NCBI GenBank assembly: GCA_045651525.1
Contig: JAZRSO010000002.1
Coordinates: 4,837-68,836, forward strand
Source: Candidatus Enterousia sp.
GTDB lineage: Bacteria > Pseudomonadota > Alphaproteobacteria > Rs-D84
Direction: 5' to 3'
DNA length: 64,000 bases
The notes under the pieces are model-generated. The model was given only the letters and a program-made list of their open reading frames with translations, did not search any database and had not been told where the DNA came from. Both the position numbers and the translations under genes were made by a program. This document shows positions 16,420-19,778 of this stretch, one piece after another (the stretch's first letter is position 1; every line of letters starts with the position of its first letter).

Positions 16420-17574
16420 CTAATGAAAAACATAACTGTCAATGCCATGATTGGTTGCAGACGCTTTTATTTTTTTGGCATCAGATTCTGTCAGGTTATA
16501 TTTGCGAACACGATACATACCGTTTCCTGTTGGTTCAACAACTGTATCGATTCCCAATTTATTTTTTATATTTTTCACATGACTTTCTGCTGCGCCCACA
16601 GAACCGAACGCACCAAATTGAACACCTGCGTTACCAGATGTTTTTGCAACAGGTTTTGACGCAGTATATTTTGGCATTGTATTTGCAGTTGCCAAATTAT
16701 ATGCCGCCGCCATTGTGGTTGCAGGCGCATTATTCTGAACCACAGGCGCAACAGGCGTTGAAACAGAAACAGGCGCAGCACCAGAATTTAACATTGAAAA
16801 ACCACGATTTAGCATTTGGGCCGCAATATTTGCACGAACATCTTTGTTTTCTGCACCCAAGACAACTGAAATTAAATGCGCATTACCACGATGTGCCGTC
16901 GCAACCAATGAATACTTGGACTTTTTGGTATAGCCTGTTTTCATACCATCACAGCCATTAAATGAAGTCAGCAAACGATTTCCGTTTGTGTATGTCTTGC
17001 CATTATACACCCACGATTTAATACCAAAGAAATGCCAATATTGTGGAAAATGCTTGTACACAGCCATAGACAACAATGCAATATCACGCGCAGTGGACAT
17101 ATGATCATCATTTGGCAGACCAGACGAGTTTTCAAAATTGGTATTTGTCAGTCCAATTTCACGCGCAACACGTGTCATTAAATCTGCAAAGGATTCTTCT
17201 TGGCCGCCTTTGAGATTTTCTGCCAAAACGCGCGCAACGTCGTTTGCACTGTACACCGCAACGGCCTTTATCGCGTCTTCTACTTTGATTTTAGAACCGG
17301 CCGCCAGCCCCAGTTTTACTGGTTCTGCATTTGCAGCAGACTGTGACACAATTAAATAATCATCCAACGCCAGACGTTTGTGTTCCAGCGCATCAAATGT
17401 CAGATACAATGTCATAATTTTTGTTAAACTGGCGGGGTAATTTAATTCAGTTGCGTTCTCTTGATATAACACACGACCTGTATTCATATCAGCCACCAAC
17501 GCCGCACGATATTGCGCCGCAGACGCAGACGCACAAATAAACAATGATAATAAAAGAGTGAACATTCTTCTCAT
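16420..17574 (-). CDS. D-alanyl-D-alanine carboxypeptidase (S11) with SPOR domain
   Basis: PASLTK (SxxK), SAN, KTG motifs; C-terminal VQFGAF...YRVR. Confidence 0.93.
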   Translation of the reverse strand: MRRMFTLLLSLFICASASAAQYRAALVADMNTGRVLYQENATELNYPASLTKIMTLYLTFDALEHKRLALDDYLIVSQSAANAEPVKLGLAAGSKIKVEDAIKAVAVYSANDVARVLAENLKGGQEESFADLMTRVAREIGLTNTNFENSSGLPNDDHMSTARDIALLSMAVYKHFPQYWHFFGIKSWVYNGKTYTNGNRLLTSFNGCDGMKTGYTKKSKYSLVATAHRGNAHLISVVLGAENKDVRANIAAQMLNRGFSMLNSGAAPVSVSTPVAPVVQNNAPATTMAAAYNLATANTMPKYTASKPVAKTSGNAGVQFGAFGSVGAAESHVKNIKNKLGIDTVVEPTGNGMYRVRKYNLTESDAKKIKASATNHGIDSYVFH

Positions 17575-17660
17575 AAAAATAATATTAGTAAAAAAATACT
17601 AATCGGGTCAATATATAAAACACCTTGAAAAACAAAACTTTCTATAATACCATATTTTAC

Positions 17661-17876
17661 GAACTTGAAACACAGGTTCGGGGTTCCCAAGACCCATAAA
17701 GCGTGAGATGTGACAAGCGACACATCAAAAAAAAGTAATGAACACAATGAAAATTGTGCGCCTGACCAAAACGGTCGGGCTACTGTGATTATACAACAGG
17801 CGTCACGCCAAAAATCACAGAGTCATTCGCTTTATGACCTTGGAAATGCCCGACCGTCATTTATTGACGGTTTTTT
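17661..17876 (+). ncRNA. Putative structured ncRNA or cis-regulatory leader of unknown family
   Basis: TTGAAA(17625)-17nt-TACCAT promoter; 5' hairpin; long closing stem 17679-17706/17823-17852 enclosing four hairpins; terminator 17853-17876. Confidence 0.65.
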
Positions 17877-17903
17877 GTTGGCATAATAAACAAGGGAAAA
17901 ATA

Positions 17904-18044
17904 ATGACGAATAACAAATATCACACTACATTGAAAATTTCTGTATTAAACGTACCAATTTTTTCAATCAAACAAAAAATACCACACAAAGAATACAAAA
18001 TATATCTGTTTGGAATAATACCAACATTTAAATTCACAACATAA
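17904..18044 (+). CDS. Small protein (46 aa, not in ORF track)
   Basis: AAGGGA RBS; MTNNKYHTTLKISVLNVPIFSIKQKIPHKEYKIYLFGIIPTFKFTT; followed by a terminator. Confidence 0.65.
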   Translation: MTNNKYHTTLKISVLNVPIFSIKQKIPHKEYKIYLFGIIPTFKFTT

Positions 18045-18069
18045 AAAAACGCCCGATTGGGCGTTGTTT

Positions 18070-19440
18070 TTAATCCAATGTTCGCAGACTTATTTTTTCT
18101 TCGTCTACGATAACCAATTTACCAGAATTTATATTGAAACGACGGGCGGCATTAAAACCTTCGCGCATACCAAACAACTGATTATCATAAATTGGAAATA
18201 CACCACGTAACAGGCATAACTGATTTGCAATTACAGATTCATTACATACTGCAATCACAGGAATATCAGGTTTGCGACATGAAATTTCTGTTGTTGCAAC
18301 TGTATCACGTGCAAACACAACAATTGCAGACGCCTTGTTCAAGTATGCCATTGACGCAACAGAACGCGACCAATCATTTTCTGGGATATTTTCAACACGT
18401 GACCAATCGTATGGATTTGCAATCGCATCTGCGTCTGCATGCTTTAAAATATTCGCCATTGTTTCAATAGTATTCACAGGATTTACACCGATTGTTGTTT
18501 CTTCGGATGTCATTGTTGAATCAGCACGCAAATATGCAGCATTTGCAACATCTGTAATTTCTGCACGGGTTGGGAATTCACTGTTTACCATTGAACCCAG
18601 CATTTGTGTCGCAACGATAACCGGCTTGTTCATCTTTCTGCACTCACGAATTATATGACGAGAAATTGCAGGAACTTCGGCATATGGAACTTCGACCGCC
18701 AGGTCGCCACGCGCAATCATAATACCATCAGCCGCCGATGCAATTTCTGTAATTCTGGCAACTGCATTTGGACGTTCAATTTTTGCAATAATTTTAATTG
18801 GGTGTGATGTATGCTGAGATATAAAATCACGCACTTCGGCAACATCTTCGGGACGCTGGACAAAAGAAATCGCAACATAGTCTGGATTTTTTGTAACAGC
18901 ATACGCCAAATCTGCCCTGTCTTTTTCAGTTAAAACAGATGTTGAAATTTCTGTATCTGGCAGATTAAAACCACGTCTGGACCAGATTTCATTTCCACGA
19001 ACAACAGTTGCATCAACACGATTTGGCGCAACACTGTCCACAGTCATTTCAATTTTGCCATCATTTAATAAAATTCTGTCGCCAACATTTAATGACGCCA
19101 ACACATCAGAATCTGGCAACTGAACACGCGTTGCGTTACCAGGCGTAGCATCTGTATCAAATGTAAACTTTTGCCCAATAGTCAGTGGGTATTTATCTTC
19201 TGTTTCAAAGTTACCAATACGATGTTTTGGTCCCTGCAAGTCAATCATAATCGCAACAGGCGTGTTTAATTCTGCAGAAATTTCACGTATCAAATCAATT
19301 TTATTTCCCTGAACATCGCCTGTATCATGACTAAAATTCAAGCGACACATATTAACCCCCGCCTGAATCATACGTGTTAATGTTTCCCTGTCTTCGCATT
19401 TTGGACCAATTGATGCAGTAATTTTTGTATATTTATTCAT
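18070..19440 (-). CDS. pyk: Pyruvate kinase
   Basis: TKITASIGP, RLNFSH, DLQGPK, IIAKIE, GIMIARGDL, ATQML, PTRAEITDVANA; likely start MNKYT. Confidence 0.97.
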   Translation of the reverse strand: MNKYTKITASIGPKCEDRETLTRMIQAGVNMCRLNFSHDTGDVQGNKIDLIREISAELNTPVAIMIDLQGPKHRIGNFETEDKYPLTIGQKFTFDTDATPGNATRVQLPDSDVLASLNVGDRILLNDGKIEMTVDSVAPNRVDATVVRGNEIWSRRGFNLPDTEISTSVLTEKDRADLAYAVTKNPDYVAISFVQRPEDVAEVRDFISQHTSHPIKIIAKIERPNAVARITEIASAADGIMIARGDLAVEVPYAEVPAISRHIIRECRKMNKPVIVATQMLGSMVNSEFPTRAEITDVANAAYLRADSTMTSEETTIGVNPVNTIETMANILKHADADAIANPYDWSRVENIPENDWSRSVASMAYLNKASAIVVFARDTVATTEISCRKPDIPVIAVCNESVIANQLCLLRGVFPIYDNQLFGMREGFNAARRFNINSGKLVIVDEEKISLRTLD

Positions 19441-19529
19441 ATTCTTTTTCCTGTGTAATTTTGTTTTTCTTGATTTTTGTCTTTTATTGTATATCATAAA
19501 GTCATCAAATAAACAAGGGGAAAACAGAA

Positions 19530-19778
19530 ATGAAACAAGCAAATCACGGTGCAATTGATAACCAACAATTGGTCAGCATTATTGAAAGAATTGAAAAATT
19601 AAACGAAGACACAGCCGCAATCGCCGCTGATATCAAAGAAATTTATAGCGAGGCAAAATCCGCAGGATTTGACCCCAAATATATCCGTCAGATGATACGC
19701 CTGCGCAAACTGGATCCAGATGAACTGGACGAAGCAGACGAACTGACACAAATGTATCGCAGCGCATTGGGTCTGTAA
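19530..19778 (+). CDS. gapR: DUF2312 / GapR-family nucleoid-associated protein
   Basis: QLVSIIERIEKL..DIKEIYSEAKSAGFD..IRLRK..YRSALGL. Confidence 0.88.
   Translation: MKQANHGAIDNQQLVSIIERIEKLNEDTAAIAADIKEIYSEAKSAGFDPKYIRQMIRLRKLDPDELDEADELTQMYRSALGL

Follow-up and report, generated by a model that had tools for sequence, protein, structure and literature searches.

A multicopy leader RNA with two exclusive folds and a copy-specific pairing code in Candidatus Enterousia

The accessory unit between dacA and pyk

The window is a stretch of 64,000 nucleotides from contig JAZRSO010000002.1 of a Candidatus Enterousia genome, and it contains, on its plus strand, a unit (17621..18039) that consists of a promoter, a switch RNA and a gene for a 46-amino-acid protein. 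The unit lies between the promoter of dacA (16420-17574, minus strand) and the terminator of the pyruvate kinase gene pyk (18070-19554, minus strand), both neighbors being named from their translations. This terminator (18048..18065) is bidirectional and is shared with pyruvate kinase; it is host sequence and is also present where the unit is absent.

The initial annotation described a single multi-branched RNA at this site, and the elements that it listed lie where it placed them. The sigma70-type promoter (17625..17653) consists of TTGAAA (17625-17630) and TACCAT (17648-17653) separated by 17 nt, and the predicted transcription start is at approximately 17659. Taken alone the promoter is weak, being a 9/12 match in a region that has four promoter-like sites where 1.7 +/- 1.4 are expected. 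Across the family of leader RNAs to which this copy belongs, a promoter occurs in register in 188 of 212 copies versus 20 of 362 control positions.

The predicted transcript opens with hairpin P0 (17660..17680), which is formed by GAACTTG (17661-17667) and CAGGTTC (17673-17679) and corresponds to the first hairpin of a c4-a1b1-like target module. It is followed by the antisense target (17681..17703), which supplies the 5' side of the copy-specific code and where b1 is held in a small hairpin (17681-17695) and a1 is single-stranded (about 17695-17703), the names a1 and b1 being borrowed by analogy from the C4 literature. The variable middle (17707..17758) is made up of hairpin GATGTG/CACATC (17707-17726), a tract of eight A residues (17727-17734) and hairpin CACAAT/ATTGTG (17743-17758), after which comes hairpin P3 (17760..17780, with CCTGACC/GGTCGGG at 17761-17779). 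The 3' domain is an 83-nt cloverleaf of the sRNA-Xcc1/C4 type (17773..17855), identified from a full-length match to Rfam family RF02221 and from covariation. Its acceptor helix pairs 17773-17780 with 17848-17855 and encloses P4 (17783-17820; CTGTGATT/AATCACAG with an ATACAA internal loop and a GGCG/CGCC cap), P5 (17822-17838), whose loop is the antisense segment a', and a linker (17839-17847) that carries the segment b'. The cloverleaf is followed by GTCA (17856..17859), which occupies the position that RCCA would have after a putative RNase P substrate. The intrinsic terminator (17853..17876, with ACCGTCA/TGACGGT at 17853-17871 and a T run) begins with ACC, and these three bases are also the last three of the acceptor helix. 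A ribosome-binding site, AAGGGA, and the 46-codon open reading frame (together 17892..18044) complete the unit.

The open reading frame (17904-18044) is conserved in a locus from another species, L062 (L062:1280-1417); it matches no Pfam family and nothing else in the genome. Its product may resemble the short YLFG-type repeats found at the C-termini of some glycosyltransferases. In L062 the unit occupies the same site and has the same code, and it is 89% identical to that of the window while the flanks are 86% and 91% identical; the two reading frames differ by 13 synonymous and 7 non-synonymous codons. In all 15 relatives in which dacA and pyk are adjacent, including the closest one, the site is empty, and the gap between the two genes is 70-177 bases versus 499 in the window. 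The element was found at none of 29 other pyk loci, and a contig from sequencing run X3 joins position 17620 directly to 18040. The simplest reading is that the unit was gained in a common ancestor and lost later. A recent transfer was considered for contigs in which identity was high in the unit and lower in the flanks, and was rejected since mixed strains explain this pattern and the L062 unit is as diverged as its flanks. Another record (run X2, record 13) has other sequence upstream of the terminator at 18040-18075; another insert may use the same terminator site, or the terminator may recur elsewhere.

At gathering level, the only Rfam matches in the window are three tRNAs located elsewhere in it, with no significant match over the unit. 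The initial annotation had seen no tmRNA or RNase P hallmark in the RNA. RNase P RNA and a two-piece tmRNA lie on other contigs of the genome. A search for ssrS and rnpB elsewhere in the genome, which it had also proposed, recovered the RNase P RNA but no Rfam 6S RNA.

Distribution and structure of the family

The RNA was initially taken for a lone element, and its multicopy nature was overlooked: the 1.05-Mb genome has leader RNAs of this kind at 28 loci. A covariance model, R1, was built from 33 copies and contains the rod fold only. It gave 28 own-genome matches; dropping two weak ones, merging one copy split over contig ends and adding three short variants found by other means again gave 28 loci. 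The weak matches, C5:3110 and C32:147, sit on tRNA or tRNA-like sequence and were not counted. Two extra RF02221 matches were suspected of being tRNAs and turned out to be short copies of the leader element. The sequence at C32:147-317 is a degenerate tRNA-like repeat located immediately after tRNA-Tyr with the same acceptor sequence at its end, and it received no call from ARAGORN. Two units stand in tandem 479 bp apart at G000:C36:3085-3771, with nearly identical 64-amino-acid open reading frames and promoters and different codes.

BLAST searches with the stretch gave matches in 19 of 61 related genomes and at several other sites in the same genome. When 101 genomes of the order Rs-D84 were searched with R1, 91 had matches and none was found in the other 10; up to 22 candidates were taken from each genome, so the numbers per genome are lower bounds. 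Deeper searches of six genomes gave 33, 40, 29, 42, 39 and 10 matches, hence up to 42 per genome, and sequences were fetched for 110 of these 193 matches. Among 150 genomes drawn from the class, 20 had R1 matches, 18 of them outside the genus, and the layout of the unit was the same in all 10 loci from outside the genus that were read. Matches to a sequence pattern came from records of Candidatus Enterousia and gut Alphaproteobacteria. One pattern scan indicated related elements at six of seven viral-contig loci, a strict pattern search of viral contigs gave no match, and no phage record matched the window copy, which sits between dacA and pyk. In family f3 (L109, L114, L119, L121, L124, L128, L131, L136, L138) many copies end at contig ends just past the terminator, so the sequence beyond it is probably variable or repeated within the population. 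No description of the leader family was found in the literature covered; the primary papers on C4 processing, on the P4 CI targets and on sRNA-Xcc1 homologues may cover part of it.

The order of parts is the same throughout: promoter, P0, b1 hairpin and a1, variable middle, P3, a domain of 66-108 nt, terminator, ribosome-binding site and gene. These parts can adopt two mutually exclusive folds. In the rod, the 3' part of the domain is taken up by b1 and a1, the closed P3 hairpin sequesters what would be the 5' side of the acceptor helix, and the terminator stays free. In the cloverleaf, that same strand, the 3' side of P3, pairs instead with bases just before the terminator and with the first few bases inside it. 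P0 and P4 are common to both folds. The rod is the fold that was initially drawn, with a long closing helix joining 17679-17706 to 17823-17852, and it is the minimum-energy fold of the window copy (-89.3 kcal/mol, z -7.15, with none of 200 shuffled sequences equally stable). The initial annotation had suspected a switch, which the two exclusive, covarying folds support; it missed the main competitor of the rod, GGTCGGGC (17773-17780) with GCCCGACC (17848-17855). The competing pairing of AAAGTAATGA that it proposed appears in folds with the target blocked and is kept in the single orthologue, but was not seen in the other copies read.

The 33 copies were aligned with MAFFT, and covariation scored on this unfitted alignment, with slid controls, supports both folds. 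The rod is 88.4% paired with two-sided changes at 36 of 61 pairs, and the cloverleaf state is 89.5% paired with two-sided changes at 30 of 47 pairs, compared with 35-43% paired in the slid controls. By helix, two-sided changes occur at 7 of 8 pairs in P0, at 3 of 4 in P5, at 4 of 6 and 5 of 6 in the two code helices, and at 4 of 10 in the acceptor helix, which is 96% paired. R1 contains only the rod, and yet 213 of 234 distinct R1 matches parse with at least 7 of 9 acceptor pairs kept. G-U pairs outnumber A-C juxtapositions by 115 to 7 in the acceptor helix and by 61 to 7 in the terminator, so the structure is selected as an RNA of the plus strand, as had been suggested from the G-U pairs of the window copy.

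The overlap between acceptor helix and terminator is itself conserved. Three shared bases can pair both ways in 143 of the 213 parsed copies, two in 69 and one in a single copy, and the overlap is kept through three-way changes among ACC, GCC, TCC and ATC. At least five U residues lie within 8 nt after the terminator in 195 of 213 copies. The middle region has a further U run, a possible pause site or early terminator, in 133 of 213 copies; the other 80, including the window copy, lack it. P3 has a mean pairing probability of 0.95 in the rod state. The window cloverleaf taken by itself folds as a cloverleaf (-31.7 kcal/mol), and over the whole leader the rod is 8.7 kcal/mol more stable. Unpaired bases of P4 are conserved, with ATAYAA in 122 and a 3' RAA in 206 of 213 copies, and 116 copies, the window copy not among them, have a GGA in the P0 loop that resembles a CsrA site.

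The nucleotides that follow the acceptor helix are R in 211, C in 161, C in 171 and A in 149 of 213 copies, amounting to RCCA in 92 and RYCA in 136. An RYCA or RCCA end after an acceptor helix fits the recognition rule of RNase P. As regards the predicted release of the cloverleaf by RNase P, the window cloverleaf starts with GGT and RNase P RNA is present in the genome; the first pair is mismatched in about one-fifth of copies.

These data bear on whether the RNA is a divergent 6S RNA (RF00013), as the initial annotation had offered. The long closing helix suits such an RNA, and Rfam scans of this genome and of 40 genomes of the order detected no 6S RNA, which may have been lost or become highly diverged there. 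A 6S RNA would not be expected at about 28 copies (from 1 to 42 per genome, and no match in 10 of the 101 genomes), always ahead of a gene, at a site that is empty in close relatives, with a second covarying fold and without the central-bubble rod, making this identity extremely improbable.

In 10 genomes, no two parsed copies of the same genome share an antisense segment. For 137 of 139 copies from these genomes the segment pairs strictly better with the target of its own leader than with any other, a result for which pairing in cis alone suffices. The own upstream target ranks first or second of 30 in 178 of 201 copies. The leaders have no second, downstream target like that of C4: sites of this kind near the ribosome-binding site occur in 22 of 201 copies versus 13.4 by chance, with a mean rank of 11 of 24 in the window genome. 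Copies of similar backbone within a genome avoid each other's codes. Among pairs with backbone identity of at least 85%, none of 19 within-genome pairs cross-reacts at 90% of cognate strength, 15 of these pairs being from the window genome and the pairs not being independent, versus 42 of 92 between-genome pairs, 33 of which have identical segments. Gene conversion that spares the paired code could give a similar contrast. In a matrix of binding energies for 24 of the 26 own-genome copies (two with an unparsed 5' part were left out, and the C19 copy was mis-parsed), folded cloverleaves bound their own leaders with a predicted net energy of 0 to -10 kcal/mol, and the own leader was the best partner in 12 of 24.

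Relationship to C4, CI and sRNA-Xcc1

The initial annotation considered the RNA a possible new class of noncoding RNA. This stands insofar as no Rfam family matches at cut-off, but the 3' domain is distantly related to sRNA-Xcc1 (RF02221), and the parts as a whole are arranged as in the C4 and CI antisense systems. The cloverleaf aligns with RF02221 over its full length (model positions 1-87, AUACAA internal loop included) and shares its three-way form with a closing helix and a second hairpin. The leader copies for which a score was obtained reached 27-44 bits, compared with a gathering threshold of 53. A targeted scan of 141 nt gave 36.9 bits for the window copy; scores were 27.2-41.7 bits for 10 of 20 own-genome loci and up to 43.8 for 4 of 11 distant loci. 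The likeness had been missed in a 1-kb E-value scan and emerged from homologous loci and the post-hoc 141-nt scan, and no RF02221 match in the genome exceeds the cut-off.

Members of RF02221 were compared at 30 loci, which came from 29 of 150 proteobacterial genomes and of which 25 score over the cut-off. In 21 of the 30, the best or second-best partner of a' and b' is the upstream sequence of the same locus, as in the leader family. In 15 of 30 there is an own target downstream or at the ribosome-binding site, which is the layout of C4 and differs from that of the leaders, and several members precede phage-type regulatory genes, as read from their N-termini. The leader family differs further in its extra 5' hairpin, in P3, in a U-tailed terminator that overlaps the acceptor helix and in the surface and glycan genes that it precedes. 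R1 weakly matches 8 of the 30 loci at the RF02221 site, with nine matches in all. Upstream of typical RF02221 loci (L289-L318) lie a promoter, a cognate target and a U-run hairpin, and the target often recurs past the ribosome-binding site, ahead of the start codon. From these sequences, sRNA-Xcc1 appears to be the part set free from a C4-type leader; the parts of the RF02221 literature that were covered contain no description of it as a self-targeting leader.

C4 of phages P1 and P7 (RF01695) is likewise a three-stem RNA that is cut from a longer transcript. It is excised by RNase P at GGW, and its variable a' loop sets specificity (PMC5320573). The c4-a1b1 rows in PMC2864571 show a hairpin followed by a short hairpin, resembling the 5' part of the leader. 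RF01695 had no match in the genome at E <= 1. In contrast to C4, the leader family lacks an a2/b2 site, with a U-tailed terminator in its place, and its output is a terminator before a chromosomal gene, whereas C4 acts on how an anti-repressor operon is translated. Two further RNAs, CI of satellite phage P4 and IsrK of Gifsy-1, are processed from leaders, act on complementary sites in their own transcripts and control termination, CI causing early termination and IsrK activating in trans (PMC4825925). Unlike the leader family these are single-copy phage loci, and CI has targets on both sides; Rfam scans gave no sequence match between CI or IsrK and the leaders. The Group 1 C4-like sRNAs of Acinetobacter baumannii are similar in having 21 chromosomal copies that vary only in the a' loop and are apparently processed at GGW, and differ in that they are described as sRNAs with unknown trans targets; the part of the report covered (PMC5320573) mentions no self-target, overlapping terminator or common class of downstream gene.

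These comparisons make it very likely that the RNA is a structured leader of the C4/CI/sRNA-Xcc1 kind. The leader family would share with these RNAs a releasable cloverleaf, its release being predicted, together with a self-target. It sets itself apart by its copy number, its chromosomal cargo, the loss of the second target and the terminator that overlaps the acceptor helix.

The kinship with sRNA-Xcc1 raises the alternative that the unit is a small-RNA gene, which would yield the cloverleaf to act on further RNAs of the host, a partner cell or an incoming phage, while the downstream gene is expressed by constant leak-through. An 88-nt sRNA-Xcc1 was confirmed by Northern blotting (PMC2996969), and the 21 C4-like RNAs of A. 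baumannii (PMC5320573) and the Xylella sXFs (PMC12189769) have been read as possible trans regulators. Such a product would leave little reason for the code to match the target in its own leader as often as it does (the 178 of 201 copies above), or for 191 of 213 copies to lead directly into an open reading frame, and this alternative is regarded as quite improbable.

Proposed control of the downstream gene

The initial annotation had included a leader of the downstream gene among its proposals, and this one is supported by the two covarying, exclusive folds and by the position of the RNA ahead of a ribosome-binding site in 180 of the 191 copies that lead into an open reading frame. By a crude rule, 127 of these 191 products have a signal-like N-terminus, versus 156 of 620 background open reading frames of the genome. 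Among 67 hand-picked downstream products, 27 have Pfam matches: nine outer-membrane or autotransporter beta-barrels, seven glycan enzymes (GT2, GT8, Stealth, sulfatase), three restriction-modification proteins, three cysteine-rich repeat proteins, one PLD-like protein, one HTH protein and three others. Surface, glycan and restriction-modification genes are the usual phase-variable classes.

The arrangement suggests a self-addressed antisense attenuator with an activating, heritable loop for each gene, a reading that is put forward tentatively and with somewhat less than even confidence. The attenuator would be derived from a phage RNA of the C4/CI/sRNA-Xcc1 kind that has multiplied on the chromosome. 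By default, the 3' code (a', b') of the nascent leader would pair with its own 5' target (a1, b1) to form the rod, which would leave ACC free, allowing the terminator to form and keeping the gene off. Occasionally the 3' domain would fold as the cloverleaf, the acceptor helix of which would take the base of the terminator and permit read-through into the gene. RNase P would excise the cloverleaf as a stable RNA of about 85 nt, and the released cloverleaf would bind a1 and b1 of new transcripts from the same locus and block the rod, giving more cloverleaf and more read-through. This positive loop would hold the gene on across divisions, and with a separate code for each copy some 30 loci would switch independently.

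When leaders were folded to just before the 3' arm of the terminator, the probability of the acceptor helix exceeded 0.5 in 5 of 213 free leaders versus 123 of 213 with the target blocked. Since blocking the target raises the probability of the acceptor helix, a released cloverleaf would be expected to favor the same fold in the transcript that follows, and because the cloverleaf takes the terminator base while the rod does not, the simplest sign for the effect is activation with positive feedback. Two further points in favor of activation are that the ribosome-binding site has no second target and that IsrK provides a precedent for activation in trans. Several results count against it. The terminator re-forms at equilibrium in 196 of 213 free and 189 of 213 blocked leaders, so antitermination would have to be kinetic and would rest on 2-3 base pairs. 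Blocking the target of the window copy brings its acceptor helix to a probability of only 0.21, and its rod is the more stable fold by the 8.7 kcal/mol given above. The net binding of cloverleaf to leader is modest, and the characterized relatives C4 and CI repress (PMC5320573, PMC4825925, PMC8198154). A relay by which the middle region opens P3 is not supported, a drop in P3 being seen in 4 of 213 copies. A search for transcripts in assembled contigs of three runs found one metatranscriptome contig over the unit, which begins at 17634, upstream of the predicted start, and therefore may be DNA and says nothing of expression; transcription of the unit is a prediction.

In the main rival reading, the same parts operate with the opposite sign, as in C4 of phages P1 and P7 and in CI of P4. 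A released cloverleaf would then bind a1 and b1 and pair into the first middle hairpin, triggering early termination; the gene would be expressed in a burst on acquisition and then damped, the 3' terminator would be the leaky end of a small RNA, and codes would diverge like immunity groups. In 131 of 213 copies the predicted duplex invades that hairpin by 4-6 nt, most copies have the internal U run, and the RF02221 loci that have the same upstream target in 21 of 30 cases have a U run after it in 25 of 30. Units that come and go between genomes are in keeping with such a phage-like element, as is the position of 6 of 27 copies within 1 kb of a tRNA, versus 2.0 expected (p about 0.01). C4-like repression is made somewhat unlikely by the 80 of 213 copies that lack the internal U run, the window copy included, for which the 3' terminator is therefore the sole visible output, and by the absence of the downstream target that C4 uses. 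An equilibrium test detected a switchable early terminator in 22 of 213 copies and in only 1 of 30 positive controls, so it is uninformative.

A further alternative to the activating attenuator is a switch that works only in cis, where a ligand, a protein or the speed of transcription selects the rod or the cloverleaf and the code is a freely drifting helix. The conserved unpaired bases of P4 and the GGA in the P0 loop of 116 copies speak for such a switch, and a closing helix that overlaps a terminator is typical of ON riboswitches. Neither the window copy nor the homologous loci match a riboswitch aptamer in Rfam, however, and a search of the genome, which is 96% complete, found no CsrA over cut-off, no GGDEF protein and no Hfq, and a single NusG. 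A CsrA site in the P0 loop was dropped as a candidate, the best CsrA match being below cut-off and inside a 572-amino-acid frame, and a c-di-GMP riboswitch was dropped as well. The downstream genes have no common metabolic theme, and a switch confined to cis would leave both the RYCA end and the avoidance of shared codes within genomes unexplained, so that this explanation appears improbable.

Members of the order Rs-D84 have reduced genomes and are probably dependent on a partner (PMC12306168). It is possible, if doubtful, that in this order a phage immunity RNA has been turned into 10-40 orthogonal, self-propagating switches, a form of phase variation based on RNA only. If this is true, surface, glycan or methyltransferase genes would be inherited in an on or off state with no change in DNA and no protein regulator, and each cloverleaf RNA would template the folding of its own nascent leader. 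A bacterium with a 1-Mb genome, probably host-dependent, in which no CsrA, Hfq or c-di-GMP synthase was found, keeps dozens of elaborate leaders with non-overlapping codes. If these codes act in trans, nature would have provided a collection of RNA regulators that are orthogonal to one another, and possibly a means of varying the cell surface heritably with no protein involved. Beyond this order, the comparison suggests that the widely annotated sRNA-Xcc1 may be a fragment released from a self-targeting leader of the C4 type and not a trans regulator of general scope.
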